From the IMG/VR virus record IMGVR_UViG_3300005288_000005, positions 1-49,629 of that record: DNA of 49,629 nt. One strand, given 5' to 3'. The notes below the pieces were generated by a model. That model was not told the origin of the DNA and did not search any database. It worked only from the letters and a program-made list of their open reading frames with translations. This stretch comes from a virus. This document shows, piece by piece, positions 19,410 to 42,620 of the stretch. The translations under genes were made by a program, and so were the position numbers. Every line of letters starts with the position of its first letter. Position 1 is the stretch's first letter.

Positions 19410-19856
19410 ATGAAAACCTCTCAGGCCGGTATCGACCTAATCCATAGCTTCGAGACGCTTAGGCTCAAGGCTTATCCAGATCCAGGCAGTAAGGACGGGA
19501 AGCCGATTACGTGCGGCTGGGGATCGACTGGGGCTGACATTACGCTAAATACCGTGTGGACAATGGAATACGCGGATCAGCGATTTGCTGCCGGGCTTTC
19601 GAAGGCTGAGCAAGCCGTCTCTTTGTTGGTCAAGGTGCCGCTGACTCAGAACCAATTCGACGCGCTCGTGTCATTCACCTATAACCTCGGCATCGGTAAC
19701 CTGAAAAGCTCTACGCTGCTCAAGATGCTGAACGAAGGGTTTTACGCGAATGCTGGGCTTCAGCTATTGCGCTGGACGAAGAATGACGGGGTTGAAATGG
19801 CTGGACTTGTTCGCCGTCGCAAGGCTGAGCTGAAACTGTTCTCTGGAGAACACTAA
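19410..19856 (+). CDS. Endolysin, GH24-type lysozyme
   Basis: MKTSQAGIDLIHSFETLRLKAYPD... matches the T4/lambda-type lysozyme N-terminus. No signal-anchor. Confidence 0.85.
   Translation: MKTSQAGIDLIHSFETLRLKAYPDPGSKDGKPITCGWGSTGADITLNTVWTMEYADQRFAAGLSKAEQAVSLLVKVPLTQNQFDALVSFTYNLGIGNLKSSTLLKMLNEGFYANAGLQLLRWTKNDGVEMAGLVRRRKAELKLFSGEH
19838..19851. repeat. 14-bp palindrome family copy (GTTCTCTGGAGAAC)
   Basis: One mismatch to GTTCTCCGGAGAAC. Ends 2 nt before the endolysin stop codon. Confidence 0.8.
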
Positions 19857-20224
19857 TGCCATGGTTATCCGCTATACCATGGCGCTTCCTCTCAGGCCTC
19901 GCTGTTGGCGCGTTCGTAGTTTGGCTTTGGCATGATGCTGCGTCGTCTCGCGTGGAGACTGAGCGCGTACAGGAACGGCTTGAGTCGGCATTCTCGGTCA
20001 TTGCAGCGAACAAGCATGACGAATCAATAGCTATGGCGTGGGAAGTGCGTCTATCGGAGCTTCGAGCAAATGAAAGCACTATCATCCGTGAGCGCGAAAA
20101 GATTGTTGAGCTGCCTGTCTATCGCAATATTTGCCTCGACGCTGACGGCGTGCAGCTCGCAAACGACGCAAAGAACGGGCGTATCGCAAGCAAGCCTGTT
20201 GACGCCTTGCCGGATACCAAGTGA
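19856..20224 (+). CDS. Rz: i-spanin (Rz-like)
   Basis: TAATG coupling to the endolysin gene. N-terminal TM helix then a coiled coil. Confidence 0.8.
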   Translation: MPWLSAIPWRFLSGLAVGAFVVWLWHDAASSRVETERVQERLESAFSVIAANKHDESIAMAWEVRLSELRANESTIIREREKIVELPVYRNICLDADGVQLANDAKNGRIASKPVDALPDTK

Positions 20225-20345
20225 TCTGGAAGGCGTAACAGGGAAGGATGCGCTGACTGCACTGACTGAGTGGGGTGCGGCGCTTAGAGAGTGCTCTGAG
20301 CGGCAGAAGGCCTTGGCTTCCGCTGTTTCCGGCTCAAATCAATAG
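20070..20345 (+). CDS. Rz1: o-spanin (Rz1-like lipoprotein), overlapped type
   Basis: Starts inside Rz in the +1 frame. Signal peptide with lipobox LTAC. Confidence 0.75.
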   Translation: MKALSSVSAKRLLSCLSIAIFASTLTACSSQTTQRTGVSQASLLTPCRIPSDLEGVTGKDALTALTEWGAALRECSERQKALASAVSGSNQ

Positions 20346-20841
20346 AACCCCAAGGATTATGCTTCGGAGGAACCGGCTTAACCCTCTTGAAGTCTACCGA
20401 GAATCCTCGAAGCTTCATCCACATACGCATGCACGTTACATTATTCCATCCGATGTGATGAGCAACCTGGGTTGCAGTATGCGAGCCTGCCATCGAGCGA
20501 ATCACATCAATAGCCTTGGAGCCGGTTCTTTTTTCATAAGCACCAGCCGCGCTATTGTCGTTCGCAATCTTGGCAATTGAAATGTTCTTCTTCGCTTCTT
20601 CTGTCTTGGCAGCGATTGCAACAAAGGCGCTGCTCGGATTGCATCTAGACCGATAAGCGCTGATATGCTCGATACAACGGATTGACACATCAAACTTTTC
20701 AGCGAGCGCAGCACAGCTAGCAATTGAGTTGATCCGCGCAATCTCTTCCTTTTTCCACTCAATCAGCTGCCTGATCTGCTCTACGTCTTCATCAGTAAGC
20801 TTTGCGTTTGGGTGATTCTCTCCTCGGGCGCGACTAACCAT
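20284..20841 (-). CDS. Multi-HTH DNA-binding protein (185 aa)
   Basis: TAATG coupling. The N-terminal 55 aa are paralogous to the 61-aa protein upstream. A second HTH-like segment lies near the C-terminus. Confidence 0.65.
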   Translation of the reverse strand: MVSRARGENHPNAKLTDEDVEQIRQLIEWKKEEIARINSIASCAALAEKFDVSIRCIEHISAYRSRCNPSSAFVAIAAKTEEAKKNISIAKIANDNSAAGAYEKRTGSKAIDVIRSMAGSHTATQVAHHIGWNNVTCMRMWMKLRGFSVDFKRVKPVPPKHNPWGSIDLSRKQRKPRPSAAQSTL

Positions 20842-21026
20842 TACCAAGTCCTATAGTTGACGACGTGAGAGATGCAAGTAACGGATACGCCGAATTTCTC
20901 AGCTAGCGCCTTATTCCCCGCAATCGAATGAATTCGCTCAATCTCCGCCTTCTTCCACTCGTAAAGCTCGCGGATCTGCTCGGCGTCTTCGTGCGTGATT
21001 TTTGCGTTGTGGTTTAGTTTTCTCAT
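20841..21026 (-). CDS. Small HTH DNA-binding protein (61 aa)
   Basis: GGAGG SD. NAKITHEDAEQIRELYEWKK...ALAEKFGVSVTCISHVVNYRTW. Confidence 0.7.
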   Translation of the reverse strand: MRKLNHNAKITHEDAEQIRELYEWKKAEIERIHSIAGNKALAEKFGVSVTCISHVVNYRTW

Positions 21027-21028
21027 GA

Positions 21029-22626: not shown

Positions 22627-22996
22627 AGCGATCCCTCCATTCGATGATTGCGATGTCTGCCGCCAGATTCGCTAACTCTTGCTGTTCTTCAGCCATCATC
22701 CGCCAGCCTAGCCGCGTCAGATCCTCGCTAGCGCCGTGATTCAAGTAGCAGGCAGCGTGCCCTATCCATGCCTGGTGATTAATCACTGTGGCGCTTAGGT
22801 TTACGTCGCAGCTATTCGGCCATTCGTCCAGCACAAGCAGGCACGACGACAGGAAGGCTTCGTAGTCGATCATCAGGTTAGCCGAGGCTTCTGGCATTCC
22901 CGTCCGATCTGCTGGCGGAAGAACCTTCCACATCATCCCTTCGTATTCCTCGCACTCAAGGTAGTGCCGGTAGACGCGCTTAAACCTTCGATTCAT
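22589..22996 (-). CDS. Hypothetical 135-aa protein inside the ParB/PAPS-reductase cassette
   Basis: ATG with GGAG 7 nt upstream. Overlaps both neighbouring genes. No family recognised. Confidence 0.65.
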   Translation of the reverse strand: MNRRFKRVYRHYLECEEYEGMMWKVLPPADRTGMPEASANLMIDYEAFLSSCLLVLDEWPNSCDVNLSATVINHQAWIGHAACYLNHGASEDLTRLGWRMMAEEQQELANLAADIAIIEWRDRFERANPKLVSRK

Positions 22997-23624
22997 CAAT
23001 CAGCTCCAACTCATCTGCTTCGTCAAACGATACGGCTTCCCATGCCTCGCTGAAATCCTCATCGCCAAACAGGCCGGCAAGGCCAGTCACTTGCTGCAAA
23101 CGCAGAACCTCGTCAGCGTCCATGCCCAATTCAGTAGAGATACGATCATCAGTCCAGAAGCGGCGCTTAAGCTCTACAACGATCTCAGACATGCTTTCGA
23201 CCTTGTGCGCACCACGAGCCCGGTTGTGGCGAATCGTCGCTGCCATGCGGTCGTTACGGTCTTGCTGGTCGGCTTTAAGCTCAACGATGGGTAGGTAGCC
23301 ATGCACGCGAGCGCTGATGGATGGCGATTCCTTGCCTACGCGGTGACGGTGGAATCCATCGATTACTTCAATGCCTTCGTTCGGCCAAGTAACAATCGGC
23401 TGCGTGTAGCCGTCCGACATAATCGAATGCTCTAGCAGCTTCATTTCTGGAGGCGCTACCGAGTTGGGGTTGTAGTCGTTTGCGTGAACGATGGTATTCG
23501 GAACCCAGCGAACGAAGTCTACTGGCTCGCTTGCGAACGGGCTGTGCTTGTGGATCTCGGCGCGAAGGCGATTGATTTCCTCTACGCGCTCTGCAAGCGG
23601 TAGTTCTGATAGGTAGTCGAACAT
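22980..23624 (-). CDS. ParB/Srx-fold N-terminal-domain protein (IbrB-like)
   Basis: IDGFHRHRV (DGxHR motif). AAGGAAG SD. 214 aa. Confidence 0.8.
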   Translation of the reverse strand: MFDYLSELPLAERVEEINRLRAEIHKHSPFASEPVDFVRWVPNTIVHANDYNPNSVAPPEMKLLEHSIMSDGYTQPIVTWPNEGIEVIDGFHRHRVGKESPSISARVHGYLPIVELKADQQDRNDRMAATIRHNRARGAHKVESMSEIVVELKRRFWTDDRISTELGMDADEVLRLQQVTGLAGLFGDEDFSEAWEAVSFDEADELELIDESKV

Positions 23625-26412: not shown

Positions 26413-26444
26413 CAAAAAAGGCCGAATCTTTTTAGGATTCGGCC
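26411..26444 (-). terminator. Intrinsic terminator after the first leftward early gene
   Basis: GGCCGAATC-N7-GATTCGGCC 9-bp stem. On the minus strand it is followed by TTTTTTGTT. Confidence 0.8.
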
Positions 26445-26449
26445 TTTCT

Positions 26450-26463
26450 GTTCTGCGGAGAAC
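26450..26463. repeat. 14-bp palindrome family copy (GTTCTGCGGAGAAC)
   Basis: One mismatch to the consensus. Lies 2 nt beyond the stop of the 26466..27023 gene. Confidence 0.75.
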
Positions 26464-26465: not shown

Positions 26466-27023
26466 TTAAGCGGCTTTCGGCTTCCTGATCTCTTTCGGGA
26501 CCTTGGACTGGAAACGCATCACGAGCTTGCGTAGACGCTGCTCGAATTCGTCACGATCGTCGTCATTCAGGTGCTCGATAACCACAATCGCGTCATGCCA
26601 CAGGGCGCCGTTCATGTGGTTGCCGGCTTTGACTAGAACACCTTTAAGTTCAGGATCGCGGATAACCTCTGGCGGCTTAGCCATTTCCTTGCGCTTCTCA
26701 GCCACCGCGTCAACCATCTGCCGCACCGAGTCGAACTCAGTAACCTTCATTTCATACTTGAAGGCTGCCCGGAACATCGAGGCGTACTGCTTGACGGCTC
26801 TAGGTGCCGGAATCAGTGTCGAGCCAGGAACCGGACGACCAATCACGTTCGACCAGCCGTTCTCTTCATAGCCGATCATCATCCACGGGTTGAATTTCTC
26901 CAGTGTGTCTATGTTTTCTTCCTTGACTAGCTTCATGAAAGCGCCTGCTACGTTGTCCAGCTTGTCGCCTTGCTCGGCGATCTGCTGAAGAACCAGTGCT
27001 TGCTTGCTTTTTTGAGTAGTCAT
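26466..27023 (-). CDS. Hypothetical 185-aa protein, first leftward early gene
   Basis: AAGAGG SD. Followed by its own terminator. Confidence 0.75.
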   Translation of the reverse strand: MTTQKSKQALVLQQIAEQGDKLDNVAGAFMKLVKEENIDTLEKFNPWMMIGYEENGWSNVIGRPVPGSTLIPAPRAVKQYASMFRAAFKYEMKVTEFDSVRQMVDAVAEKRKEMAKPPEVIRDPELKGVLVKAGNHMNGALWHDAIVVIEHLNDDDRDEFEQRLRKLVMRFQSKVPKEIRKPKAA

Positions 27024-27116
27024 GTCGGTCGAGCCTCTTTATCGTATCGCTAATCCTTTGCAGTAATTCTCAGTGTAGGGGGCGCCGCTAGTGGCGTTTG
27101 CCCCTGCCTGTTTGTA

Positions 27117-27144
27117 AGGCTAGCTCAGTAACATCCTGTGTCAA
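27117..27144 (-). promoter_or_regulatory. Candidate leftward early promoter TTGACA-N16-TAGCCT
   Basis: Read on the minus strand. The -35 element overlaps copy 1 of the 11-bp repeat. Confidence 0.4.
27133..27143 (+). promoter_or_regulatory. Operator-like 11-bp direct repeat, copy 1 (ATCCTGTGTCA)
   Basis: Identical 11-mer at 27227..27237. Confidence 0.5.
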
Positions 27145-27195
27145 AGACGATTTGGGTATAAGTCGACGACTGGTTATGCAGGATAAAAACTAAGT

Positions 27196-27209
27196 GTTTT
27201 CCGGAAAAC
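27196..27209. promoter_or_regulatory. Perfect 14-bp palindrome GTTTTCCGGAAAAC at the -35 position of the rightward promoter
   Basis: Self-complementary. Related to the GTTCTCCGGAGAAC family. Confidence 0.5.
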
Positions 27210-27222: not shown

Positions 27223-27231
27223 TGGTATCCT
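27223..27231 (+). promoter_or_regulatory. Candidate extended -10 promoter TGgTATCCT (early class)
   Basis: 31 nt upstream of the Cro-like start. The same pattern occurs at 39471 and 40061. Confidence 0.5.
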
Positions 27232-27237
27232 GTGTCA
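27227..27237 (+). promoter_or_regulatory. Operator-like 11-bp direct repeat, copy 2 (ATCCTGTGTCA)
   Basis: Overlaps the -10 element of the rightward promoter. Confidence 0.5.
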
Positions 27238-28055: not shown

Positions 28056-28865
28056 ATGGCTGGCGACTGGATTAAGTTTGAGCTGTCTACGTTTGAGAAG
28101 ACAGAGGTTTATCAGGTGGCAGACCTGGCGGGCATTGATGAGGACGCCGCAATAGGGAAACTGCTGCGAGTATGGGCGTGGTTTGACCAGCAAACAGAGA
28201 ATGGTAACGCTCCGAGCGTTAGTAAAAGGTTAGTTGATCGTTTGTGCGGCGTTAATGGCTTTTGCGATTGCATGATAAAAGCAGGGTGGATGATCGAATA
28301 TTCGGAGGGTGATCTGCCTTTTGTGGCTCTTCCAAACTTCGATAGGCACAACGGAAAGACCGCCAAGAATCGTGCGCTGACCGCCAAGCGCGTGGCTTTG
28401 CACAAGGTTAACGCTTCGCTAACGCAAGGTGCGTTACCTAAAGAAGAGAAGAGAATATTAGAATCAAAAGCACTTGTCGCCGACGAGTCGGCAACTGGCG
28501 ATGGTGATTTGTTCTCTGATGAGCCGCCAGCACCGATCAAATCGAAAGCAAGAGCCAAGCCGGTCGTTGACTACGACGAGATCATGAGCGCCTACAACGA
28601 ACTTTGCTCCGGCAAGGGAAAGCTGATCGGGTGCGACACCGTTAACGACGCACGAAAGCGCTTGATTGACAAAGCTCTGGACATTAAGATCGGCGGCGAA
28701 AAGCCATTTCGTGAATACGGCATTGAATACTGGAGAGCGTATTTCTCTATTTGCCCGAACGATCCGCACTGGTGCGGCATGAGCGTTGGTGGATGGAGGG
28801 CGAATTTCGATTTCGTCCTCAAGGAAAAAAACATAATCGCGGCACTGGAGAAGAATAATGGTTGA
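28056..28865 (+). CDS. Replication initiation / replisome organiser protein
   Basis: N-terminal DWIKFELSTFEK...LLRVWAWFDQQT and C-terminal WRANFDFVLKEKNI patterns. Immediately upstream of dnaB. Confidence 0.7.
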   Translation: MAGDWIKFELSTFEKTEVYQVADLAGIDEDAAIGKLLRVWAWFDQQTENGNAPSVSKRLVDRLCGVNGFCDCMIKAGWMIEYSEGDLPFVALPNFDRHNGKTAKNRALTAKRVALHKVNASLTQGALPKEEKRILESKALVADESATGDGDLFSDEPPAPIKSKARAKPVVDYDEIMSAYNELCSGKGKLIGCDTVNDARKRLIDKALDIKIGGEKPFREYGIEYWRAYFSICPNDPHWCGMSVGGWRANFDFVLKEKNIIAALEKNNG

Positions 28866-31570: not shown

Positions 31571-31789
31571 ATGAGTATCGATTGGAGAAGTGCCCCAGAT
31601 GGAGCAACTCACTACGCACCAGCTTTTGGAGCTTTCAAAGCTCTATGGGCAAGGAAAAATTCAATGATGTGGGAATACCATTGCGGGTCTTCTCGCGGAG
31701 GTTGGTATGAAGGGGTTCAGCCGCTTGACGGCGAAGAATTTATTTCTCGTCAAGATACCGCAAACAATAGTTCTCCAGAGAACAGTTAA
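31571..31789 (+). CDS. Hypothetical 72-aa Trp-rich protein (distant member of the W-rich family)
   Basis: Same 15-nt SD repeat upstream. MSIDWRSAPDGATHY... Ends in SSPENS. Confidence 0.65.
   Translation: MSIDWRSAPDGATHYAPAFGAFKALWARKNSMMWEYHCGSSRGGWYEGVQPLDGEEFISRQDTANNSSPENS
31770..31783. repeat. 14-bp palindrome family copy (GTTCTCCAGAGAAC)
   Basis: One mismatch to the consensus. Ends 3 nt before the stop. Followed by the tandem AGTTAAC AGTTAAC at 31784..31797. Confidence 0.75.
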
Positions 31790-32544: not shown

Positions 32545-32548
32545 TGCA

Positions 32549-33146: not shown

Positions 33147-33155
33147 CTTTATTAT

Positions 33156-33184: not shown

Positions 33185-33190
33185 TATTAG

Positions 33191-33857: not shown

Positions 33858-33860
33858 TGA

Positions 33861-33889: not shown

Positions 33890-33903
33890 GAGCCTTTCTT
33901 TTT
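33872..33903 (+). terminator. Intrinsic terminator
   Basis: AAAA-AGGCTC-ctaatgt-GAGCCT-TTCTTTTT. Confidence 0.7.
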
Positions 33904-33923
33904 GCGGTGAATTTGGAGGGTGT

Positions 33924-34184
33924 ATGAAATACATAAATATCGAATGTGATCGGTTTTCGTGTGCTAGCAGCTCGCACTATCGAGAAGATCATCACATTGA
34001 GCTTGTTGTAGAGGTCGATCAAGGCGAGGTAATCAATCAGTTTACAGCCAAAGAAATCATATCTTCTTTCGATATAGGTTCCTTGCTCGATGAGATCGGC
34101 ATTTCGATTGCTCTTGAGCATTATGCCGGGCCTGGGAATATCACGATGGAAGACTTCCGCAATATTCTGGAGCGTGCGAAATGA
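33924..34184 (+). CDS. Hypothetical 86-aa protein
   Basis: ATG with a TGGAGGG SD. Internal start of the 107-aa track ORF. Confidence 0.65.
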   Translation: MKYINIECDRFSCASSSHYREDHHIELVVEVDQGEVINQFTAKEIISSFDIGSLLDEIGISIALEHYAGPGNITMEDFRNILERAK

Positions 34185-34507
34185 CCACCACCACCACAAC
34201 CCTAAAAAACGCAGCCTTCGCGATTGAGCATGACCTTTTCACGGATCCAGATGGCGCGAACTATCTGGTTAAGGATGGGGCTATATTGCGGAGGTGGGAG
34301 CCGTTAGCGAATCCTGCCGATGCGTTCGAGCTTATGGTTTCTCTGCGCCTGGATGTGAATTACTTTCCTGGCTTCGGTGAGGTTCACGCTAGCGACGAGG
34401 GCGGATACAATTGCCGGATGTGTAGCTACTCAGGCGATCTAAGTTCGGACACTAGACGCGCTATCACTGAATGCGCTGCGATCATTGGTGAATCGCTATG
34501 GGCATGA
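34181..34507 (+). CDS. Hypothetical 108-aa protein (weak DUF2591/ABA-sandwich-like pattern)
   Basis: ATGA coupling. WEPLANPADAFELMVSLRLDV. Confidence 0.6.
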   Translation: MTTTTTTLKNAAFAIEHDLFTDPDGANYLVKDGAILRRWEPLANPADAFELMVSLRLDVNYFPGFGEVHASDEGGYNCRMCSYSGDLSSDTRRAITECAAIIGESLWA

Positions 34508-34580
34508 TCGCCTTGACATGGTTCACCTGGACCTATCTACTACCGCGACCTAAGACGAAAATTAGTTATTGGAGGGGTGT

Positions 34581-34853
34581 ATGAGTGATGTTAAGCGTTA
34601 CAAAGGCATGACGATTGGCAGTCTTAGCGATTGCGTTTTGGCGGAGGACTACGACAAGCTAAAGGCCGAAAACGAATCTCTGCGCAAGGATGCTGAGCGG
34701 TATCGTCGTATCCGCTTAGGATATTTGCTTGATGGTGAGATCTACATGCTTGATAGGCGCGGGTGCATGTACGAAGAAGAGGCGTGTCTTCTGGAGGGCG
34801 AAGAGCTGGACAGTGCTATCGACGCCGCTATCAGTTCTCCGGAGAACCATTAA
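34581..34853 (+). CDS. Hypothetical 90-aa protein with ERYRRIR motif. Ends in SSPENH.
   Basis: ATG with a GGAGGGG SD. Confidence 0.65.
   Translation: MSDVKRYKGMTIGSLSDCVLAEDYDKLKAENESLRKDAERYRRIRLGYLLDGEIYMLDRRGCMYEEEACLLEGEELDSAIDAAISSPENH
34834..34847. repeat. 14-bp perfect palindrome GTTCTCCGGAGAAC (family consensus)
   Basis: Ends 3 nt before the TAATG stop/start junction. Confidence 0.85.
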
Positions 34854-35077
34854 TGCCAACGCTGAGCATCCTAGGGCTCACTTTGGAGGCCGATATCCAG
34901 TATGCCCACACACACCCGGCAACCGAGCACGCAAACGGCCACAGCGAGCTTGAGTGGACTCTCTCCAGCGGCACAGACGAAATAGGCGAAACAATTTCGC
35001 GAAAAGGCCTTGACTTCATCGCCGATAAGTTTTTAGATGACATCGAACGCGCTATTTGGGCGCAGATAGGGAGATAG
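34853..35077 (+). CDS. Hypothetical 74-aa protein
   Basis: TAATG coupling. The GGAG of the palindrome lies 8 nt upstream. Confidence 0.6.
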   Translation: MPTLSILGLTLEADIQYAHTHPATEHANGHSELEWTLSSGTDEIGETISRKGLDFIADKFLDDIERAIWAQIGR

Positions 35078-35081
35078 GGAA

Positions 35082-35300
35082 ATGAGTAAGCCGGACTGGA
35101 ATGAGGCGCCAGAATGGGCGCAATGGTTGGGACAAGATGAGGTTGGCGAGCATCGAGATCACTATTGGGTTTGGTTTGAAAACGAGCCGTCGCAAATGTC
35201 AAATGGTTGGATCGACAGATCAGCAGATGGTCGCTGCCTAGAAACTCGGGATGTCGCTACACAACAAGAATGGCGCAAAACACTGGAGCAAAGACCATGA
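35082..35300 (+). CDS. W-rich family protein, copy A (72 aa)
   Basis: KPDWNEAPEWAQWLGQD...EWRKTLEQRP. Paralogous to 38496..38717 and to the C-terminus of 35977..36429. Confidence 0.75.
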   Translation: MSKPDWNEAPEWAQWLGQDEVGEHRDHYWVWFENEPSQMSNGWIDRSADGRCLETRDVATQQEWRKTLEQRP

Positions 35301-35527
35301 GCACAATCACAGTCACCCAAGCACGCATCGCACTCGAGGCCGCACACATGGCATACGTGCAGGCAGATATCGAGCACCCGACCGCTACACACATTGCAAA
35401 AGAAGCGCTGACCAATGCGCGCCACGAATACTGGAATGCGTGCGCTGCGTTCTGCACTAAGCTGGAGTTCGCCACTGATCTTGGCGAGGTTCACGAGAAC
35501 CTGATTGCGCAGGGGCTTTGGACATGA
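35297..35527 (+). CDS. Hypothetical 76-aa protein
   Basis: ATGA coupling on both sides. Confidence 0.6.
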   Translation: MSTITVTQARIALEAAHMAYVQADIEHPTATHIAKEALTNARHEYWNACAAFCTKLEFATDLGEVHENLIAQGLWT

Positions 35528-35802
35528 GCGAGTTGCAGCCTGGGATGTTGGCGTTGGCTCACGGACTTGCGATCAATACAGAGCTGAACGGACTGATGGT
35601 AGAGTTGGTTTGCCAGCCAGAAGACTCCGGTTATGAGAACTTTGAGTTTGATGGCTGGAAACCGGGCGACTGGATTTGCAGCCACCCATCATTCTCAGAA
35701 GAGGACGGCGGAGTTGGTCTGTTTGATCGGAAGAACCTGCTACCAATCAAACCAGAATCAGACCCGCTCGACGTGACCCATAAGGAAGAACTGTATGCAT
35801 GA
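35524..35802 (+). CDS. Hypothetical 92-aa protein
   Basis: ATGA coupling. Confidence 0.65.
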   Translation: MSELQPGMLALAHGLAINTELNGLMVELVCQPEDSGYENFEFDGWKPGDWICSHPSFSEEDGGVGLFDRKNLLPIKPESDPLDVTHKEELYA

Positions 35803-35980
35803 AATTATCAAGGAGATGCAGGCTAGAGGATGGTCTCTGGCGCTGATCGCCGCAAGAAGCGGTGTAAGCCAGAACAGGCTTGAGCGCGGAGTGTTTGGCG
35901 TGAGGGAAGAAAGGGCTCTGTTGCGTTTGGCCGAGGAAGAATGTCACATCGATTTGGATAGCATGGGGATTGAAGAATGA
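35795..35980 (+). CDS. Small HTH-like protein (61 aa)
   Basis: WSLALIAARSGVSQNRLERG resembles a helix-turn-helix. Confidence 0.55.
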   Translation: MHEIIKEMQARGWSLALIAARSGVSQNRLERGVFGVREERALLRLAEEECHIDLDSMGIEE

Positions 35981-36429
35981 GCCGCAGCGACGGAAGCACA
36001 GCAGACTATTACGTACTCCCTGAAGGCGCTACACAGCTTCAGGACTTGATCAGCCATCGCGATATGAATTCGCAAATCGGTGAAATCTTCCGCGCTTGCT
36101 ATCGGTATGGGATCGTCAGCCATAGCGATAAGATGCGCGACGCTAAGAAAATCCGCTTCTATGCTCAGGCTGAGGTTGAACGGTTGGAGAAGCTTGAATT
36201 AGAGTCAATGCCGATTATTGCCATTAAGCCGAGCTGGGATGCCGCCCCTAAGTGGGCTAATTATCTTGCTCAAGACAGTGGCGTATGCGGATGCTGGGTA
36301 TTTTATGAGAACACACCTGTTATCACAGTTGACGGGTGGGTTCAAAGTACAGGCCAATGGGAAAACACTGGAATACACTCTAATAATCCCGAATGGCGCA
36401 ACACTTTGGAAGCAAGGGCAGCCAAATGA
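35977..36429 (+). CDS. DUF3310-like domain fused to a W-rich family domain (copy C)
   Basis: N-terminus ADYYVLPEGATQLQDLI...GEIFRACYRYG. C-terminus KPSWDAAPKWANYLAQD...EWRNTLEARA. Confidence 0.7.
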   Translation: MSRSDGSTADYYVLPEGATQLQDLISHRDMNSQIGEIFRACYRYGIVSHSDKMRDAKKIRFYAQAEVERLEKLELESMPIIAIKPSWDAAPKWANYLAQDSGVCGCWVFYENTPVITVDGWVQSTGQWENTGIHSNNPEWRNTLEARAAK

Positions 36430-36462
36430 CCGAATACAACGAGCATCGATAAAAATTCAACC

Positions 36463-36488
36463 AAGGCCCGAATTCAGGGCCTTTTTAT
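36463..36488 (+). terminator. Intrinsic terminator
   Basis: AAGGCCC-gaattca-GGGCCTT-TTTATT. Confidence 0.75.
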
Positions 36489-36525
36489 TGCATAATGGAT
36501 TTTCAAAGATCTTCGAGGGAAGGGT

Positions 36526-38007
36526 ATGCAAGAGCTTCAGTGGTGCATTAGCCAGGGATATACGAACCAGCAAGCAGCTGACCACCTTGGAATTAACGAG
36601 CGCACCGTTCGGCGCTGGAAGGAAAGGCTGAAGGCTGATCCGGTGCAGGTGAGCGCAAACGACGACGGCCAATACGATACGTTCGTCATTACGTCGGCAG
36701 TCAATGCAACAAAGGCACATAACGGCTTTCTAGCCTCGCTGCACACCTACTGCGCGCATAACAACGCCAAGCTGATCGTTCTGCCTATGCGCTATCGCAA
36801 CCCTACGCGCAAGGAAGAAACGCCGGATGATTGGTGGGACTCTCGACTCACTCCGCATATAGTTAACCAGCGCACCAAGCTGTGCCGTGACGTTGTATTG
36901 CTGGCAGACATCAAGGTTCAGCCCACCGCTATCAACCCACTGCAAGGCTGGCTGACGGTATCAGGCACAGACTCAGCGATCCTGGCTCACACGAAGGTCG
37001 CACTTCAATCCGTGCCGACTATGGTTGGTGATGACGCTAAGCTCGTGATGACTACTGGCGCCTGCACTGTACCGCAGTACTCAGACACCAATGCCGGCAA
37101 GAAAGGTGAATTTCATCACACGTTAGGCGCCGTGATTGTCGAGGTTGACCGCAAAGGCACGCATCTTCGCCACGTATTGGGCGAGAGAGACGGCTCATTC
37201 ATTGATCTGACCGCCAAGTACTCGCGTCACGGCGTTGAGGCTGCTCCTGATGCGTCTGTGCTGGTCTTGGGCGATCTACACGCTAGACAGGTAGACAGCA
37301 AGGCGCTTGACGCCACAGAGCGTCTTGCAGTGGCTCTCAAGCCTAAGTCAGTATGCCTGCATGATGCACTAGACTTCTCGTCGGCCTCGCACCATTCAGG
37401 CTACTTCGAGCGCTTCAAGCTGCACGTCACCAAGCAGAACAGCATTCTCAAGGAGCTTGAGGTTACAGCTAAGATCCTAGACCGCATCTCAATGTGGGCG
37501 CCTGAGATTGTCATGGTCGGCTCGAACCATAACGAACACTTCACGCAATACCTATCGAAGTACGAGAACGCGCTAGATCTTGAGAACGCACTGGTTTATC
37601 ACGAGACAAAGGCCGCGATGCTCCGTTCAATTCACGAGGGATCTTACCTTGACCCGTTCAAGTACTGGGTTGACAAGCTGGCATCGACTCCTGATGCGAT
37701 CCACTGGCTTCGACCTGGCGAATCGTTCTCACGCCACGGTATCGAACTCGGATTTCATGGCCATCGAGGTCCGAACGGCGCACGAGGTAGTACGAAAGGG
37801 TTTAGCAACATCGGGGCGCGCACTGTAACCGGCCATAGCCACTCGCCAGCCATCATTGATGGCGCGTATTGCGTAGGTACGACCAGCAAGCTCAAGATGG
37901 GCTACAACGAGGATTCGCCGTCATCCTGGCACCATACGCATTGTATTGTGTACGCAAACGGTAAAAGAGCCCTTTTGCATTGCATTTCAGGCAAGTTTTT
38001 TCGATAA
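36526..38007 (+). CDS. N-terminal HTH fused to a calcineurin-like metallophosphoesterase (493 aa)
   Basis: HTH GYTNQQAADHLGINERTVRRWKERL. Ordered MPE motifs GDLHA, GSNHNEH, FHGHRG, TGHSHSP. Confidence 0.7.
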   Translation: MQELQWCISQGYTNQQAADHLGINERTVRRWKERLKADPVQVSANDDGQYDTFVITSAVNATKAHNGFLASLHTYCAHNNAKLIVLPMRYRNPTRKEETPDDWWDSRLTPHIVNQRTKLCRDVVLLADIKVQPTAINPLQGWLTVSGTDSAILAHTKVALQSVPTMVGDDAKLVMTTGACTVPQYSDTNAGKKGEFHHTLGAVIVEVDRKGTHLRHVLGERDGSFIDLTAKYSRHGVEAAPDASVLVLGDLHARQVDSKALDATERLAVALKPKSVCLHDALDFSSASHHSGYFERFKLHVTKQNSILKELEVTAKILDRISMWAPEIVMVGSNHNEHFTQYLSKYENALDLENALVYHETKAAMLRSIHEGSYLDPFKYWVDKLASTPDAIHWLRPGESFSRHGIELGFHGHRGPNGARGSTKGFSNIGARTVTGHSHSPAIIDGAYCVGTTSKLKMGYNEDSPSSWHHTHCIVYANGKRALLHCISGKFFR

Positions 38008-38015
38008 ATAATTGG

Positions 38016-38044
38016 TTGACCTGCTGAAAATGCAGGTCTAATCT
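38016..38044 (+). promoter_or_regulatory. Sigma70-like promoter TTGACC-N17-TAATCT with a 7-bp inverted repeat in the spacer
   Basis: GACCTGC-tgaaaat-GCAGGTC occupies 38018..38038. Confidence 0.55.
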
Positions 38045-38071
38045 TGCTGAAATTAACGAGTGGAGGTGGTT

Positions 38072-38284
38072 ATGGAGTTGTCTATCGGCGATGCTACATT
38101 TCAGAAAAGCTTTGCAAAGGTCGGATTCGACGGAATTAATCGAGTAACTGGAACGTTTAAGGCACCAAAAGGCCGACAGTTCGTAACTCTTCTGATTGGC
38201 GATATCGATGCCAAGGCTACAGATTGCGATCCTGAGAAATTGCTAAACGAACTTGGATTCTTCTACCGGGAGCAACCAGAATGA
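38072..38284 (+). CDS. Hypothetical 70-aa protein
   Basis: ATG with a GGAGGTGG SD. Confidence 0.65.
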   Translation: MELSIGDATFQKSFAKVGFDGINRVTGTFKAPKGRQFVTLLIGDIDAKATDCDPEKLLNELGFFYREQPE

Positions 38285-38499
38285 TCAACGTAATCCCGCG
38301 CTGGACCATGGGATCGCCGACCCGCCTACAAGCCGGCCAATTCATCGTCTACGAATCCGGCGAGTACCAGCTAATCGGCAGTCATACGGCGCTAACCAGT
38401 ACGCAGAAGATCCTCAAGCACACTACGCTGATTGAGGCGCATGAGTTGGAGTGGTTGCAGTCGATGGCAGTTCAGCGTTCGTTGGGGGTGTTGAAATGA
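38281..38499 (+). CDS. Hypothetical 72-aa protein
   Basis: ATGA coupling on both sides. Confidence 0.65.
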   Translation: MINVIPRWTMGSPTRLQAGQFIVYESGEYQLIGSHTALTSTQKILKHTTLIEAHELEWLQSMAVQRSLGVLK

Positions 38500-38717
38500 G
38501 CAAGAGCAAGCCAGAGTGGAGAGATGCGCCTGAATGGGCTCAGTGGTTGGCGCAAGATAAAGACGGATGGTATAGCTGGTGGAATATTGAGCCGGTAGCC
38601 TGCGACAAAGCTGAATGCTGGAATCAAGGCAAACCGATGGAAGAGTGGGAATATCTGGACGTTTCGGTTGGCGCTCTAGCCGAAGACTGGCGTAAAGCAC
38701 TGGAACCTCGCCCATGA
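38496..38717 (+). CDS. W-rich family protein, copy B (73 aa)
   Basis: KPEWRDAPEWAQWLAQD...DWRKALEPRP. Confidence 0.75.
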   Translation: MSKSKPEWRDAPEWAQWLAQDKDGWYSWWNIEPVACDKAECWNQGKPMEEWEYLDVSVGALAEDWRKALEPRP

Positions 38718-38899
38718 CAACCCTAATCGCAATCTGGCTAGCAGTAGGCTTCTTCAGCTACTGGCCGCTGGTGTGGCACTACAAGATCGCTGAGCAAGGC
38801 AAGTGGTACGAATGGCTATGCGCATGGGCAGTCTGGTCCGTATGCTGGCCGTACCGCTACACAATGGACGCTTGGTATTGGTGGAGGGCGAAGAAGTGA
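38714..38899 (+). CDS. Hypothetical 61-aa Trp-rich membrane protein
   Basis: N-terminal TM helix LIAIWLAVGFFSYWPLVW. ATGA coupling. Confidence 0.65.
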   Translation: MTTLIAIWLAVGFFSYWPLVWHYKIAEQGKWYEWLCAWAVWSVCWPYRYTMDAWYWWRAKK

Positions 38900-39114
38900 T
38901 TAAATGGCTAAAATGTTGGTGGAGAGGTCATCACACGTACTTCCCTTCTTACATGGAGCGGCACATAGTAAGATCAGGCCGTCATGCAAAACATATAGGG
39001 AAAGAATTCCAGTACACATGCCAAACGTGCCGCGCTAAGACCGGATGGATTCGTAAAGCCAAACAGCTACAATGGGAGCTGGAACATAATCCTAGCTGGA
39101 GCAATGAGCCATGA
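38896..39114 (+). CDS. Hypothetical 72-aa basic protein with C..C / HH zinc-finger-like residues
   Basis: GTG overlapping the upstream stop, with a GGAGGG SD. CWWRGHH...CQTCRAKTGW. Confidence 0.5.
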   Translation: MIKWLKCWWRGHHTYFPSYMERHIVRSGRHAKHIGKEFQYTCQTCRAKTGWIRKAKQLQWELEHNPSWSNEP

Positions 39115-39338
39115 CCACAATCAACGACCTAGAACAAATCAACACCATGGCGATGATGACCATGTGCGAGCTTGGGTATGCGCGGTATGAGCGGTTTCGT
39201 GCAGGGCTGAAGATGGATGAAGAGGCGTGCGACAAGCTTCGTCAGTTCGTTTATTCGAATTCAGACATGGAGCACGAGTTGGAGCTTCGAATAAAAGTGG
39301 CCCCGATGTACAAAAAGAGTGTACAATTGCATCACTAA
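39111..39338 (+). CDS. Hypothetical 75-aa protein, last gene of the rightward early/middle block
   Basis: ATGA coupling. Followed by a strong terminator. Confidence 0.65.
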   Translation: MTTINDLEQINTMAMMTMCELGYARYERFRAGLKMDEEACDKLRQFVYSNSDMEHELELRIKVAPMYKKSVQLHH

Positions 39339-39374
39339 CCGAATCGCAGCGTCCCCCTCCGTAGCGATACCTTA

Positions 39375-39403
39375 AGACCCGTGAACCGTCCGGGTCTTTT
39401 TTT
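39375..39403 (+). terminator. Intrinsic terminator ending the early/middle block
   Basis: GACCCG-tgaaccgtc-CGGGTC followed by seven T. Confidence 0.85.
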
Positions 39404-39470
39404 GCCTGCGATTCCAGTTAAACAGCACTTTTCGCACAAATCAGCCAGAATATTAGCGTTTTCGCGCTCG

Positions 39471-39479
39471 TGGTATCAT
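39471..39479 (+). promoter_or_regulatory. Candidate extended -10 promoter TGgTATCAT (early class)
   Basis: Lies in an ORF-free region. Predicted start near 39486. Confidence 0.45.
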
Positions 39480-39485
39480 TCTCCC

Positions 39486-39729
39486 GCCTAGTTCCAATGC
39501 AGGCCGTCCTAGCCACTCGTTATTAGGGCTCGATTTGCGGCTCGTAAGTCGCAACCATCCAGCGACAATGCCAGCGCAGAACCTGAAATTCTGTTAGCTT
39601 CTGGATAAGACCGAGAAAGCATGGTGAGTCTAGAGAAGTTCACCCGTCGCAGCCCGCACACGCGGATCAACACACGCCCCAAGCCTATGACCAGAAATGG
39701 TTATGCTCAAATCGGGGCGTTTTTATTTT
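39486..39729 (+). ncRNA. Candidate ~245-nt untranslated transcript (late leader or ncRNA)
   Basis: Bounded by a promoter and a terminator. The longest ORF is a 36-aa Arg-rich frame (39621..39731) with a poor SD. Ends not mapped. Confidence 0.4.
39674..39729 (+). terminator. Compound intrinsic terminator
   Basis: Outer stem ACGCCCC/GGGGCGT encloses an inner 7-bp hairpin with a GAAA loop, followed by TTTTTATTTT. Confidence 0.7.
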
Positions 39730-39740
39730 AGCGAAAGGTG

Positions 39741-39769
39741 TTGACGCGCAATCCTGGCAGGCGTAGATT
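39741..39769 (+). promoter_or_regulatory. Sigma70-like promoter TTGACG-N17-TAGATT
   Basis: 12 nt after the terminator and 35 nt before the 39804 start. Confidence 0.6.
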
Positions 39770-39803
39770 TGGCTCATCGGAACGAACAACGGAGCAAGAC
39801 GAG

Positions 39804-39974
39804 ATGAATAAATACAGTTTGCGTGTCAAGTACGCTGGTGGTGTCGCATACCACAAATTCAGCTACCAGGCGCCTGACATGGAATTTGCGGTTAAGAGCG
39901 GTTACGAATTCGCAAAAGCTCAAAACCCAGGAATTCCGATTGTCCAGTTCATAGTTGAATCCCGCGACCGCTAA
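39804..39974 (+). CDS. Hypothetical 56-aa protein in a single-gene unit
   Basis: ATG with a GGAG SD. The track ORF start at 39738 lies inside the promoter. Confidence 0.6.
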   Translation: MNKYSLRVKYAGGVAYHKFSYQAPDMEFAVKSGYEFAKAQNPGIPIVQFIVESRDR

Positions 39975-39991
39975 CCAACCCAGCCCACCTC

Positions 39992-40019
39992 AAGCCCTCT
40001 TAACCGAGGGCTTTTTATT
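39992..40019 (+). terminator. Intrinsic terminator
   Basis: AAGCCCTC-ttaacc-GAGGGCTT-TTTATT. Confidence 0.8.
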
Positions 40020-40060
40020 GCCCGCCAAAAAGTGATATCAAAAAGCTACCGAACCAAAAA

Positions 40061-40069
40061 TGATATCCT
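40061..40069 (+). promoter_or_regulatory. Candidate extended -10 promoter TGaTATCCT (early class)
   Basis: A second TGATATC lies 28 nt upstream, at 40033. Confidence 0.4.
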
Positions 40070-40106
40070 TGTTCCAATGTTTACATTCCTTAAACCCCAG
40101 ACTCTC

Positions 40107-40427
40107 ATGAAGCCAAATAAAATGCCTGACTCCCCTAACGGCTGGTTTAACCTGCTGTCGAACATGCCAGGACCACTTCAGGCATTCGGCGCAGCTATCA
40201 TTACTGCGGTTCTCCGCGTCTACTATGACAAATCAGAGACGAGCTGGCAGCGTGTAGGCCTAGAGGGTGCATTGTGTGCCTGCCTAGCTACCGGGCTGTC
40301 TATGGTCAGCGCCTACTTCGGTCTGCCCGAAAACTCAGGCGTGTTCATCGGCACATTCGTTGGTTTCATTGGCGTCATTAAGTTCCGTGAGTACATGGGA
40401 AGGTTGCTGGATAAGCGGACTGACTGA
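40107..40427 (+). CDS. Holin, three TM helices, possible dual-start (MKPNKM)
   Basis: Three hydrophobic segments and a charged C-terminus KFREYMGRLLDKRTD. In-frame Met codons at 40107 and 40122. The upstream alternatives at 40032 and 40077 lack an SD. Confidence 0.6.
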   Translation: MKPNKMPDSPNGWFNLLSNMPGPLQAFGAAIITAVLRVYYDKSETSWQRVGLEGALCACLATGLSMVSAYFGLPENSGVFIGTFVGFIGVIKFREYMGRLLDKRTD

Positions 40428-40443
40428 TCCTCCGTGGTAAGAT

Positions 40444-40467
40444 AGCCTCCTATATGGAGGCTTTTTT
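40444..40467 (+). terminator. Intrinsic terminator whose 3' arm carries the terS SD
   Basis: AGCCTCC-tatat-GGAGGCT-TTTTT, then ATG at 40468. Confidence 0.7.
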
Positions 40468-40962
40468 ATGGCAAACAGACCCATGGTTCACACTGGCGAT
40501 AAGGTCACAGGGAAAGGGCGCTCAAGGACTTTTGAGACGCCTGAAGATCTGATGGTAGCGTGTGAAGAGTACCTAGAGTGGAACGAGGCTAACCCTCTTC
40601 TCGCTGCTCAGCCGTTCCACTTTCAAGGCACGATCATCATGGCCGAGGTGCCTAAACCTCGCGCTCCGTCGATTGTGAGTCTCTGTACGCATCTTGGTAT
40701 TCATCGCCACACGTGGCAAAACTACCGCAAGTCCGAAGAATTCGATCTTGTGTGCATCGAGATCGAAGGCCGGATGAGCGAATACAAATTCCAGAACGCT
40801 GCTGCTGGCTTGATGAATTCGACGATTATCATTCGTGACCTCGGGCTCACTGACAAATCAGAAGTCAACAGCACAGGCACCGTAACCCACGTCAACTACT
40901 CCCCCGCAGACTACAAGCAGGCCGAACTAGAGCTAGGGAACAAGCTCGATGACCTCGACTAA
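40468..40962 (+). CDS. terS: Terminase small subunit
   Basis: RSRTFETPEDLMVACEEYLEWNEANP pattern. Overlaps terL. Confidence 0.75.
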   Translation: MANRPMVHTGDKVTGKGRSRTFETPEDLMVACEEYLEWNEANPLLAAQPFHFQGTIIMAEVPKPRAPSIVSLCTHLGIHRHTWQNYRKSEEFDLVCIEIEGRMSEYKFQNAAAGLMNSTIIIRDLGLTDKSEVNSTGTVTHVNYSPADYKQAELELGNKLDDLD

Positions 40963-42604
40963 TAAGCTGCTCGACTGGGAGGATATGAATTTCGCTGACC
41001 GCCTGATACTCAAGCAGAAGTCAGAGAAGTCATTCCTTAACTTCACTCGCATCTGGTTTGAGCTGCTACAAGGCGATCGACTGCTTGTGAACTGGCATCA
41101 CAAGATGATGGCAGCGTCGATTGATGACCTGATCAACGGCAAGCTCAAGCCTGGAAACCTTATCGTCAACATTCCACCGGGCGGCACGAAGACAGAGTTT
41201 TTCTCTATCCACTTGCCGGCCTACATCAACACAAAGGTTCAGTCCAAGAAGCTGCGCAGATTCCGAAACCTGAACGTTTCCTACGCTGACTCGCTCGTTC
41301 GTCGTAACTCCAGACGCACACGGGACATTATTGCGTCTAAGGAATATCAGGAGTTGTGGCCGTCTGTCTTTGGTGTTAACCAGGCGGAAGAGTGGGAGCT
41401 GATCGACGACAAAGGGCGCTCAGTAGGGCAGACCATTAGCAAGTCCGCTGGTGGTCAGATCACGGGCGGTCGTGCTGGCTACTTCGGGCCGGAGTTCTCT
41501 GGCTGCCTGCTCTTTGATGATTTGAATAAGCCTGACGACATGCTCTCGAATACGAAGCGTGACGCCAGCAATGCGCGACTGACTGGCACGTTCCGGTCTC
41601 GTCGTGGTGACAAGTCGAAAGAACACCCTACGCCTATCGTCTCCATCCAGCAGCGGCTGCATACGTTCGACGCTACCGGCTTCATGATGGCTGGCGGCAT
41701 GGGTGTCGAGTTCAAGAATATAGCCATCCCCGCGCTGGTTACAGAGGACTACATCGCCACTCTGCCTGAGCCCTATCGGCAAATGTGCTGGGATACGGTA
41801 AAGGATACTGATTCAGTCGAGAAGGGAGGCGTTCGTTACTGGTCATATTGGCCGGAAATGGAACACGTCAACGACCTCATGTCGCTTTGGGAGCGAGATG
41901 AGTACACGTTCATGTCTCAGTACATGCAGAGACCTCAAGCGCTTACTGGCGGCCTGCTGGACTCGGCATGGCTGCAACGATACGAGCAGTTGCCGCAAAT
42001 GCAGTGGCGAGCCGTGTACGCGGATACGGCTCAGAAGAAAGGCGAGCAGAACGACTATTCGGTGTTTGAGCTGTGGGGGCTTGGCGTCGATAACAACGCC
42101 TACCTGATCGACGTTAGGCGCGGCAAGTGGGATGCCGACGAACTGATCACGACTGCTCAGAACGCATGGGCTGAATGGTCGTCGTGGGATCTTGCGCATA
42201 TCAGGCACATGGCTATTGAGGACAAGGCTAGCGGCACCGGCCTGATTCAAACGCTGACCAACAAGAAGCATATCCCGATCAAGGCTATCCCTCGCGGGCC
42301 TGACAACAACAAGGTATCGCGATGCCTGGATATTCAGAGTTACGTCAAGAATGGGCGTGTGTTCGTTCCGGCCATCTTGAATGAAGAAGGCTATCCGATC
42401 TTGCGCACTACGGATCACACTGGGAAGCAGATAGCCAAGACTGATTGGGTGCTGCCTTTCCTGGCAGAAGTGGCCGATTTCAGCGCTGATGACTCGCACA
42501 AGCACGATGACCAACTCGATCCCCTCTTTGATGCTGTAGCGGAAATGCTGATTGAGCAACAGGCTACAGGCGGCATTCTCCTGCCTCGCAGACTCAGGAG
42601 GTAA
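40949..42604 (+). CDS. terL: Terminase large subunit
   Basis: 551 aa. Walker A-like PPGGTKT and Walker B-like CLLFDD. C-terminal nuclease-sized domain. Confidence 0.85.
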   Translation: MTSTNKLLDWEDMNFADRLILKQKSEKSFLNFTRIWFELLQGDRLLVNWHHKMMAASIDDLINGKLKPGNLIVNIPPGGTKTEFFSIHLPAYINTKVQSKKLRRFRNLNVSYADSLVRRNSRRTRDIIASKEYQELWPSVFGVNQAEEWELIDDKGRSVGQTISKSAGGQITGGRAGYFGPEFSGCLLFDDLNKPDDMLSNTKRDASNARLTGTFRSRRGDKSKEHPTPIVSIQQRLHTFDATGFMMAGGMGVEFKNIAIPALVTEDYIATLPEPYRQMCWDTVKDTDSVEKGGVRYWSYWPEMEHVNDLMSLWERDEYTFMSQYMQRPQALTGGLLDSAWLQRYEQLPQMQWRAVYADTAQKKGEQNDYSVFELWGLGVDNNAYLIDVRRGKWDADELITTAQNAWAEWSSWDLAHIRHMAIEDKASGTGLIQTLTNKKHIPIKAIPRGPDNNKVSRCLDIQSYVKNGRVFVPAILNEEGYPILRTTDHTGKQIAKTDWVLPFLAEVADFSADDSHKHDDQLDPLFDAVAEMLIEQQATGGILLPRRLRR

Positions 42605-42606
42605 CG

Positions 42607-42620
42607 ATTCTCCGGAGAAC
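42607..42620. repeat. 14-bp palindrome family copy (ATTCTCCGGAGAAC)
   Basis: Starts 3 nt after the terL stop. 16 of 17 nt are identical to 19839..19855. Confidence 0.75.

Follow-up and report, generated by a model that had tools for sequence, protein, structure and literature searches.

A dispersed 14-bp palindrome at gene ends of a phage group, conserved as a symmetric sequence

The 14-bp palindrome GTTCTCCGGAGAAC recurs, mostly at the ends of genes, in IMG/VR virus record IMGVR_UViG_3300005288_000005, analysed here over its positions 1 to 49,629 (49,629 nt; the window in the following), and in the genomes of its relatives. Judged by comparison of these sequences, it is a real, phage-group-specific element under strong purifying selection, and it is a variant of a phage genome feature that is already known but unexplained. 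We tentatively read it as a multi-site operator for a dimeric, phage-encoded protein, with six to seven copies per genome, and give this reading a little less than an even chance.

A search with up to two mismatches finds exactly six sites in the window, at 19838, 26450, 27196, 31770, 34834, and 42607 (slots A, B, C, E, F, and G), where shuffling with preserved dinucleotide frequencies leads to an expectation of 0.13; none of 100 shuffled sequences reaches six. The mismatch spectrum has a gap (no mismatch, n=1; one, n=4; two, n=1; three, n=2; four, n=10), and with a 24-bp weight matrix, trained on the copies of relatives only and with the window excluded, the six sites score 28.5-33.8 bits, the next-best position 9.7, and the maxima of the shuffled sequences 3.6-14.5. 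The motif is thus more frequent than in shuffled controls, and a chance origin is rejected. The five copies that an earlier note on this DNA had listed after a scan by eye all lie where it placed them, with a perfect match at 34834 and one mismatch each at 19838, 26450, 31770, and 42607, and from the clean gap in the scores it follows that the scan overlooked no copy. Two looser relatives had been named as well: the one at 27196 (GTTTTCCGGAAAAC, two mismatches) is a true sixth copy; the one at 17246 (TTCTCCGAGAAC) is not a member, scoring -2.5 bits as a degenerate copy and drifting like the surrounding coding sequence in four relatives. A restriction-modification target is also rejected, as the core TCCGGA is found 13 times where 13.1 are expected, and for the most part away from the motif. 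A literature search for the motif sequence returned two matches, both unrelated.

For five of the six copies, a stop codon is no more than 4 nt away: it follows after 3-4 nt at 19838, 31770, and 34834; at 26450, a minus-strand stop is 2-3 nt from the motif; and the stop of TerL is 2 nt before the copy at 42607; the copy at 27196 is intergenic. The proximity to stop codons claimed for the five listed copies (about 20 nt) is thus borne out for all of them. So are the two reading frames, which yield C-termini in ...LKLFSGEH at 19838 and in ...NSSPENS and ...ISSPENH at 31770 and 34834, respectively, and the stop/start junction TAATGCCA after the motif at both 19838 and 34834. Conservation is also, as had been proposed, at the level of nucleotides: the same 14-mer is retained whether it is translated in one frame or the other, is non-coding, or adjoins a gene of either strand, and varied endolysins as well as varied families upstream of slot F all meet an unchanged motif. 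At slot A, relatives have two types of endolysin, one ending inside the motif and the other stopping just before it; at slot F, the upstream genes belong to a hypervariable coiled-coil family and at least one other family, all ending in ...SPENP or ...SPENH. Members of the coiled-coil family share a central LKAENESLRK segment and the tail encoded by the motif, and are otherwise very diverse; the gene at 34569-34853, with its counterparts, looks like a rapidly diversifying locus. Directly 3' of copy E there is a series of tandem heptamers (31784-31806: CAGTTAA CAGTTAA CCTTTAA CGTTA).

The loci of relatives were collected via TerL and DnaB, and as the clade we denote those with a TerL that is 94-97% identical, or which otherwise have many genes in common with the window. 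DNA of the clade contains 57 copies in 332 kb, that of more distant relatives, including Pectobacterium phage ZF40, none in 1.87 Mb. When IMG/VR is scanned for the exact 14-mer, contigs homologous to the window often have 2-4 copies and unrelated ones a single chance copy, with two weak exceptions; contigs with multiple copies are almost all homologous to the window. To avoid circularity, the occupancy of slots was counted with the slots set by their flanking genes, not by the motif. The motif does track gene boundaries in relatives, being present next to 11/11 Rz homologues found (slot A, all perfect matches), in 16/16 cases at slot B, in 10/11 clade contexts at slot E, at 25/27 homologues of the gene 34853-35077 (slot F), and in 13/13 clade contexts of TerL (slot G), the latter against 0/75 contexts of TerL relatives with ≤80% identity. 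Slot C is filled in approximately 12/18 (11-12 filled, 6 without) and is thus optional. Within slots, the mean pairwise identity is 0.90-0.99 for the 14-mer and 0.25-0.65 for the flanks (0.25 being random); at slot E, both flanks are at random identity beyond about 30 nt. At slot B, the order of stop codon, motif, and terminator is found in all 16 relatives having the gene and in the most divergent one (L253), and the sequence of the terminator varies while the motif is constant. Each slot also holds its own variant across divergent genomes, such as GTTTTCCAGAGAAC at slot E (14/21) or GGAAAAC at slot G (9/14). A slot H, after a 493-aa gene, is present in few genomes only and not in the window; a slot D, inside the replication gene of two close relatives (L081 and L083), is rejected as probably a chance near-match derived from a coding segment for DLFSDE.

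The core of the motif, GTTYTCC-GGARAAC, consists of two abutting half-sites GTTYTCY. In an alignment of 70 instances, conservation extends past the 14-mer to TAAnT-[14]-AnTTA, giving a dyad of about 22-24 bp; a 24-bp sequence carrying it is TAACTGTTCTCCGGAGAACAGTTA. The conservation of the flanks is due in part to stop codons, as slots B, E, and G use the left TAA as an actual stop; yet the flanks are also kept where no gene ends, namely to the left of slot C and to the right of slot E. Residues T2, T3, T5, A12, and A13 are the same in all instances and A10 in almost all; positions 1/14, 4/11, and the central four bases vary. The information content is symmetric, flanks included.

An RNA element between cistrons would be one way to account for this, either a small hairpin or the site of an RNA-binding protein, which would couple translation by masking the GGAG, or protect or process mRNA ends; the earlier note had considered such a coupling hairpin and an RNA-processing site. 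The variation at symmetric positions points away from it. At positions 4/11, the unique sites have CG 33 times, TG 6 times, CA 5 times, and TA once; the double change is thus seen in 1/46 unique sites, which is about the expectation for independence. At positions 1/14, there are 11 A.C among the 46 unique sites and no A-T, and at positions -1/16 complementary pairs are rarer than chance predicts. Variants that break pairs in the sense strand are frequent (A1.C14 in 11/46, C4.A11 as the commonest form at slot G), so that specific bases are conserved rather than pairs. The hairpin itself is very weak, as its folding energies show (core, -2.2 kcal/mol; mean values of actual 30-mers, -2.5 to -6.4), and there is no match to an Rfam family anywhere in the window. 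Given the lack of covariation and the weakness of the hairpin, it is the sequence that is conserved and not a fold, and selection on an RNA structure is rejected. Nor is the motif an intrinsic terminator: no T run follows it, and a terminator scan of 25.5-45 kb places terminators at 33875, 36463, 39992, 40444, and 43836, none of which coincides with the motif.

What speaks for an RNA element is found at the junctions, in the proximity to stop codons of five of the six copies, in slot B, where the motif lies in the 3' UTR directly before a terminator, and above all in the behavior of the GGAG. On the sense strand it is kept in 20/20 contexts of slot A and 26/27 of slot F, where 7-8 nt separate it from a start codon overlapping the stop of the preceding gene (TAATG), with no other Shine-Dalgarno (SD) sequence there; these two slots also have the most perfect palindromes (18/20 and 21/27 perfect). 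At slots E, H, and G, where the next start is 30-60 nt away and the next gene has its own GGAGG, the dyad is kept and the GGAG selectively lost, in 21/21 cases at slot E (to AGAG or GAAG) and both at slot H, with 4/14 keeping it at slot G (usually GGAA). The proposal that the GGAG serves as the downstream SD sequence therefore stands for 19838 and 34834, where it is the only plausible one, but is not general, being lost at E in 21/21 and at G in 10/14. As the dyad persists without the GGAG, ribosome binding cannot be the common function; two copies, those at 19838 and 34834, are co-opted as putative ribosome-binding sites. The loss of the GGAG where the next gene has its own SD sequence, in turn, means that selection at the level of translation acts on the element. 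Since slots G, H, and C, on the other hand, lie just upstream of promoters, and in view of the missing covariation, we consider it unlikely that the motif is an RNA element at heart.

Selection that maintains a symmetric sequence, and not a stem, is characteristic of sites recognised by dimeric proteins, and of the four roles that the earlier note had offered, a dimeric regulator site thus fits best, with symmetric information content and no constraint from base pairing. In the operator reading, a dimer of a protein of the phage group would recognise the two-fold symmetric DNA site, a binding that we infer. The protein would modulate initiation at 27196, where the site covers the -35 region of the rightward early promoter, and at the copy at 42607, whose center is about 44 bp upstream of the predicted start; at 19838, 31770, and 34834, within operons, and at 26450, at the end of the 185-aa gene, it might act as a roadblock to RNA polymerase or tie distant sites together. 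That the site overlaps gene ends would follow from the minimal intergenic space in phages, and at 19838 and 34834 its right arm would also have been taken over as the SD sequence of the next gene.

The promoter after copy G (42623-42651) matches in 10/12 positions, one of the two joint best in 19.5 kb, and its conserved form in relatives is TTGMCR-17-TAnAnT, the spacer being spanned by an inverted repeat. Slot H of relatives has the same layout; of this the window keeps the promoter TTGACC-17-TAATCT (38015-38043), not the dyad. No promoter geometry common to all slots was found; only slots G, H, and C abut promoters, at differing distances. The inverted repeats across the spacer and the -35 or -10 differ in sequence between the two promoters (GACCTGC/GCAGGTC at 38015-38043, GAGCCGAAT/ATTCGGCTC at 42623-42651), and their stems vary among relatives yet stay complementary; they may be a second regulatory layer. 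At slot C, a repeat (T)ATCCTGTGTCA / TATCCTGCAT, at 27133-27143, 27227-27237, and, on the reverse strand, 27172-27185, brackets the copy and overlaps the -10 region. A G+C-rich element, GGGGGCGCCGCTAGTGGCGTTTGCCCCTGCC (27078-27110), further precedes the 185-aa gene; it is conserved in several relatives, has no match in Rfam, and may be a 5'-leader structure or a protein site.

The candidates for the binding protein are a predicted helix-turn-helix (HTH) protein of 61 aa and a protein of 185 aa with a novel fold, both found throughout the clade. Copies B and C lie on either side of the gene for the 185-aa protein, which has no match in Pfam or PHROG; profile searches against PDB and Pfam are empty. 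Two models were built, of which the second, from a deep alignment, has a pLDDT of 90 and is all-helical; the model has no match in PDB, and its matches in BFVD are uncharacterised phage proteins only. Homologues with at least 61% identity occur in the clade only, always together with the motif. Remote homologues (about 40% identity or less) are found in other phages, beside replication or recombination genes, and recurring palindromes are absent from the three of their neighborhoods that were examined. No clade locus covering the region lacks the 61-aa protein, which is otherwise found only in one distant relative; all of its 62 database homologues are on contigs of ≤50.4 kb, and the JGI annotation has them as XRE-family HTH regulators. 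A third protein, the Cro-like one encoded next to copy C, is set aside, as it has two types of recognition helix (SRQKIW and HPSMMW) with the motif unchanged. The presence of the ATCCTGTGTCA repeat, by contrast, tracks the type of Cro recognition helix, and this repeat is thus probably the true Cro operator.

Several points weigh against an operator. Most copies are away from promoters; what a roadblock between endolysin and Rz would serve is not obvious; and the promoter-proximal slot C is absent from a third of relatives. The stop-adjacent positions and the use of the GGAG at two slots show that selection at the RNA level acts on the element as well. Of the candidates, the 185-aa protein has no recognisable DNA-binding fold, and for the 61-aa protein the assignment as HTH derives from weak matches and the source annotation. 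Finally, one distant relative (L252) has a 61%-identical homologue of the HTH protein, yet one copy of the motif (G) in 20 kb. In this homologue a residue of the recognition helix is changed, and the 185-aa gene is apparently missing, a pattern which mildly favors the 185-aa protein as the binder. If so, this could be a new kind of sequence-specific DNA-binding protein, which would act on the two dyads flanking its own gene and on four or five at cistron junctions, and the motif would be a symmetric, orientation-free counterpart of stoperators. A network of roadblocks or loops would thereby set operons apart in a non-lysogenic phage whose hosts are Gram-negative soil bacteria, and the same 14 bp would be read as protein tail, SD sequence, and operator. 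We regard this more specific proposal as distinctly unlikely to hold in full.

That the motif sits at joints of mosaicism is the basis for a further explanation, also among those first offered, in which it is a linker for recombination: the shared 14-24 bp would allow the phage recombination system to swap modules between co-infecting relatives, and the motif would persist by creating mosaicism. Homology between relatives does start and stop at the motif (BLAST matches begin at 34818-34835 in seven relatives), the flanks drop to random identity, the gene families beside slots E and F vary widely, with a few adjoining different slots, and a suitable module is present, comprising a RecE-like exonuclease, an adjacent candidate annealing protein, SSB, and RusA. 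However, the genes that are inserted next to the motif in three relatives (L005, L008, and L084) are not bracketed by two copies, and the persistence of slot-specific variants means that slots neither homogenise nor exchange. Identical repeats at six to seven places per genome would favor deletions, and that 14 bp would be kept at 90-99% between saturated flanks by selection for evolvability is unlikely; the repeats of Cluster O mycobacteriophages are likewise uninvolved in rearrangements, according to their authors (PMC4351075). Any essential intergenic site looks like a breakpoint. Recombination at the motif looks like a consequence rather than a function; as its function we find it decidedly improbable.

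Very improbable, in our estimate, is a parS-like centromere or genome-organising site that loads a condensing protein of the ParB/Noc/KorB type or another kind, as in N15. parS and Noc-binding sites are 16-bp perfect TGTT...AACA palindromes with several dispersed copies per replicon, some of them in genes, and N15 is a linear plasmid-prophage with dispersed centromere sites. The six to seven dispersed copies of the motif, partly inside genes, resemble such sets; its 16-mer, TGTTCTCCGGAGAACA, shares the outer arms and their spacing (TGTTC-N6-GAACA) with the chromosomal parS sequence, TGTTNCACGTGAAACA; no integrase is found, and all contigs of the group are about 50 kb or shorter. The window also encodes a ParB-like protein (22980-23624), next to a PAPS-reductase-like one. 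This pair, however, is unique to the window among all fetched relatives and has no homologue in the other loci, all of which keep the motif, so that it is rejected as the binder; the clade thus has no conserved ParB, and no ParA is found in the gene annotation. In addition, the central 6 bp differ from those of parS, and parS sites are not required to lie at exact gene junctions, as the copies of the motif do. The probability left after these readings belongs to something not yet imagined.

Table 1. Features of the window that bear on the motif, and its gene map.
Feature	Position	Strand	Remarks
Slot A copy GTTCTCTGGAGAAC	19838..19851		last codons of endolysin gene (LFSGEH, then stop); GGAG 7 nt before Rz ATG at 19856
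Endolysin and Rz-like spanin	19383-19856 and 19856-20224	+	gene pair joined by copy A
Slot B copy GTTCTGCGGAGAAC	26450..26463		2 nt past stop of minus-strand 185-aa gene, just before bidirectional intrinsic terminator
Bidirectional intrinsic terminator hairpin AAAGGCCGAATC / GATTCGGCCTTT with A and T runs	26417..26447		from inverted repeat search; adjoins slot B
Slot C copy GTTTTCCGGAAAAC	27196..27209		divergent region between 185-aa and Cro-like genes, at expected -35 of rightward promoter
Extended -10 promoter TGgTATCCT	27223-27231		rightward; read by eye, not returned by scanning tool
Slot E copy GTTCTCCAGAGAAC	31770..31783		end of open reading frame (ORF) 31373-31789 (SSPENS, then stop); 30 nt before NinX-like gene having its own GGAGG
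Slot F copy, perfect GTTCTCCGGAGAAC	34834..34847		SSPEN at end of ORF 34569-34853; GGAG 8 nt before ATG 34853 (TAATG overlap)
Gene pair joined by copy F	34569..35077	+	upstream, hypervariable coiled-coil family (KAENESLRK motif); downstream, conserved 74-aa protein
Slot G copy ATTCTCCGGAGAAC	42607..42620		2 nt after TerL stop, immediately 5' of sigma-70-like promoter
Promoter-like site TAGACA-17-TATATT	42623..42651	+	-35 starts 3 nt after copy G; inverted repeat GAGCCGAAT/ATTCGGCTC over spacer and -10
185-aa protein	26466..27023	-	all-helical novel fold, candidate binder; gene flanked by copies B and C
61-aa predicted HTH protein	35795..35980	+	candidate binder; weak match to PHROG 6831 'transcriptional regulator'
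Cro-like HTH_3 protein, 57 aa	27262..27435	+	set aside as binder
PAPS-reductase-like protein, 406 aa	21029-22249	-
ParB-like protein, 214 aa	22980-23624	-
Head and tail genes	1-16.9 kb	+
Small genes	16.9-19.4 kb	-
Endolysin and Rz	19.4-20.2 kb	+
PAPS-reductase-like, ParB-like, SSB, RecE-like exonuclease	20.3-27.0 kb	-	185-aa gene at head
Cro-like, replication initiator, DnaB, RusA, many small genes, 493-aa metallophosphoesterase, holin, TerS, TerL	from 27.26 kb	+
MuF-like and portal genes	43.9-46.7 kb	-

The window has an exact 110-bp direct repeat at its two ends (1-110 and 49520-49629), and sequences of relatives run uninterrupted over the junction between its end and its start; the assembly is thus circular and complete, and its unique sequence amounts to about 49.5 kb. 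A comparison with 50,697 deposited phages gives no close match; the TerL of Pectobacterium phage ZF40 is 63% identical to that of the window; near-identical DNA is present in soil, rhizosphere, and plant metagenomes. There is no close prophage among 185,579 species-representative genomes, and no integrase in the gene annotation of the window. A sequencing run from 2017 with a single-organism label (X13) contains contigs of a related phage at about 80-100x depth, compared over window positions 30000-49629, and may be a lead to a culturable host. The single run marked as RNA consists of contigs of a related phage, which carry no information about transcript ends.

Several further features of the gene map stand apart from the motif. 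The closeness of the PAPS-reductase-like and ParB-like genes is a pairing often read as a DNA-modification module. On the minus strand, genes for a MuF-like head protein and for the portal (43904-46702) converge on the terminase operon, with a strong bidirectional terminator at the convergence (43836-43860); such a split of the packaging and head module is unusual. A promoter-like TTGACG-17-TAGATT (39741-39769) is followed about 220 nt on by a strong terminator (39992-40013), the holin gene, a second terminator (40444-40462), and TerS, a layout (39741-40462) like the lambda PR'-tR' late antitermination unit; a Q-like protein has not been identified. Inside the replication initiator gene (28056-28865), a block AGAAGAGAAGAGAATATTAGAA (28430-28460) is kept even where the alleles of this gene are otherwise only 42-51% identical; it may be an origin of replication within the initiator gene, as in lambda. 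Lastly, three paralogous copies of an uncharacterised domain occur within 4 kb (35082-35300, the C-terminal half of 35977-36429, and 38451-38717; PHROGs 20561, 21375, and 1972).

Among known systems, the operators of HTH repressors are of comparable build: dimers of such proteins usually bind a dyad of 14-22 bp, and the window encodes two small predicted HTH proteins. The half-site GTTYTCY is nearly the heptamer GTTCTYT that is bound, also in inverted pairs, by the HTH repressor SinR of B. subtilis (PMC3163267). Classical phage operators cluster at one or two promoters, whereas the copies here are spread over gene junctions. The start-associated sequences of Cluster K mycobacteriophages, of about 13 bp, contain the ribosome-binding site and lie just upstream of starts, often overlapping the upstream stop (PMC3203893). 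Only slots A and F are like them: start-associated sequences are asymmetric and always at translation starts, whereas four of the six copies here are away from starts, and two of the slots concerned have lost the sense-strand GGAG in all or most genomes.

The stoperators of Cluster A, bound by gp71 of phage L5 and its relatives, are asymmetric 13-mers that are occupied by a monomer, follow the direction of transcription in their orientation, and serve in prophage silencing (PMC9283540); occupied by the immunity repressor of the phage, they block elongation. As with stoperators, a single phage protein would have many sites: one copy of the motif is found at the early promoter (27196) and the others in tiny gaps between genes, at five junctions, where they overlap gene ends and intergenic space is short. 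Unlike them, the motif has few copies and is symmetric, and thus without orientation; and whereas stoperators are tied to prophage silencing, the phage group of the window has no sign of lysogeny; neither a repressor nor an integrase was identified. If the 185-aa protein truly binds the motif, this would add a new DNA-binding family, and a regulatory principle for lytic phages without the classical repressor circuitry.

The nearest described phenomenon appears to be the 17-bp dyad repeat 5'-TGTTCGGNNNCCGAACA of Cluster O mycobacteriophages, which occurs in more than 30 copies, roughly one in three within coding sequence and most away from promoters, in phages without an integrase; its authors predicted dimeric DNA-binding proteins and left the function open (PMC4351075). 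The two have much in common: both are dispersed, conserved, and dyad-symmetric, partly intergenic and partly coding, mostly remote from promoters, found in phages without an integrase, and not terminators, and they even have the same outer arms, TGTTC...GAACA. The motif is, like the Cluster O repeat, a short invariant inverted repeat, present in many copies, group-specific, and symmetric in its conservation. They differ in number and build, with more than 30 copies and a 7-bp center with a 3-bp spacer in Cluster O, against six to seven copies with abutting half-sites here, and in the phylum of the host. What sets the motif further apart from the Cluster O repeat are its fixed slots, a few nucleotides from stop codons, two of which double as SD sequences. 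Within one 14-bp sequence, codes thus overlap: unrelated proteins take their C-terminal tail from it, and it also contains a ribosome-binding site and a putative symmetric recognition site, with selection visibly removing the ribosome-binding reading at slots E, H, and most of G. Dispersed dyad repeats of phages such as those of Cluster O have been described and never explained; the present case is a smaller and cleaner one, whose six to seven copies in fixed slots can be traced across dozens of mosaic relatives, with two candidate binders on the short list.

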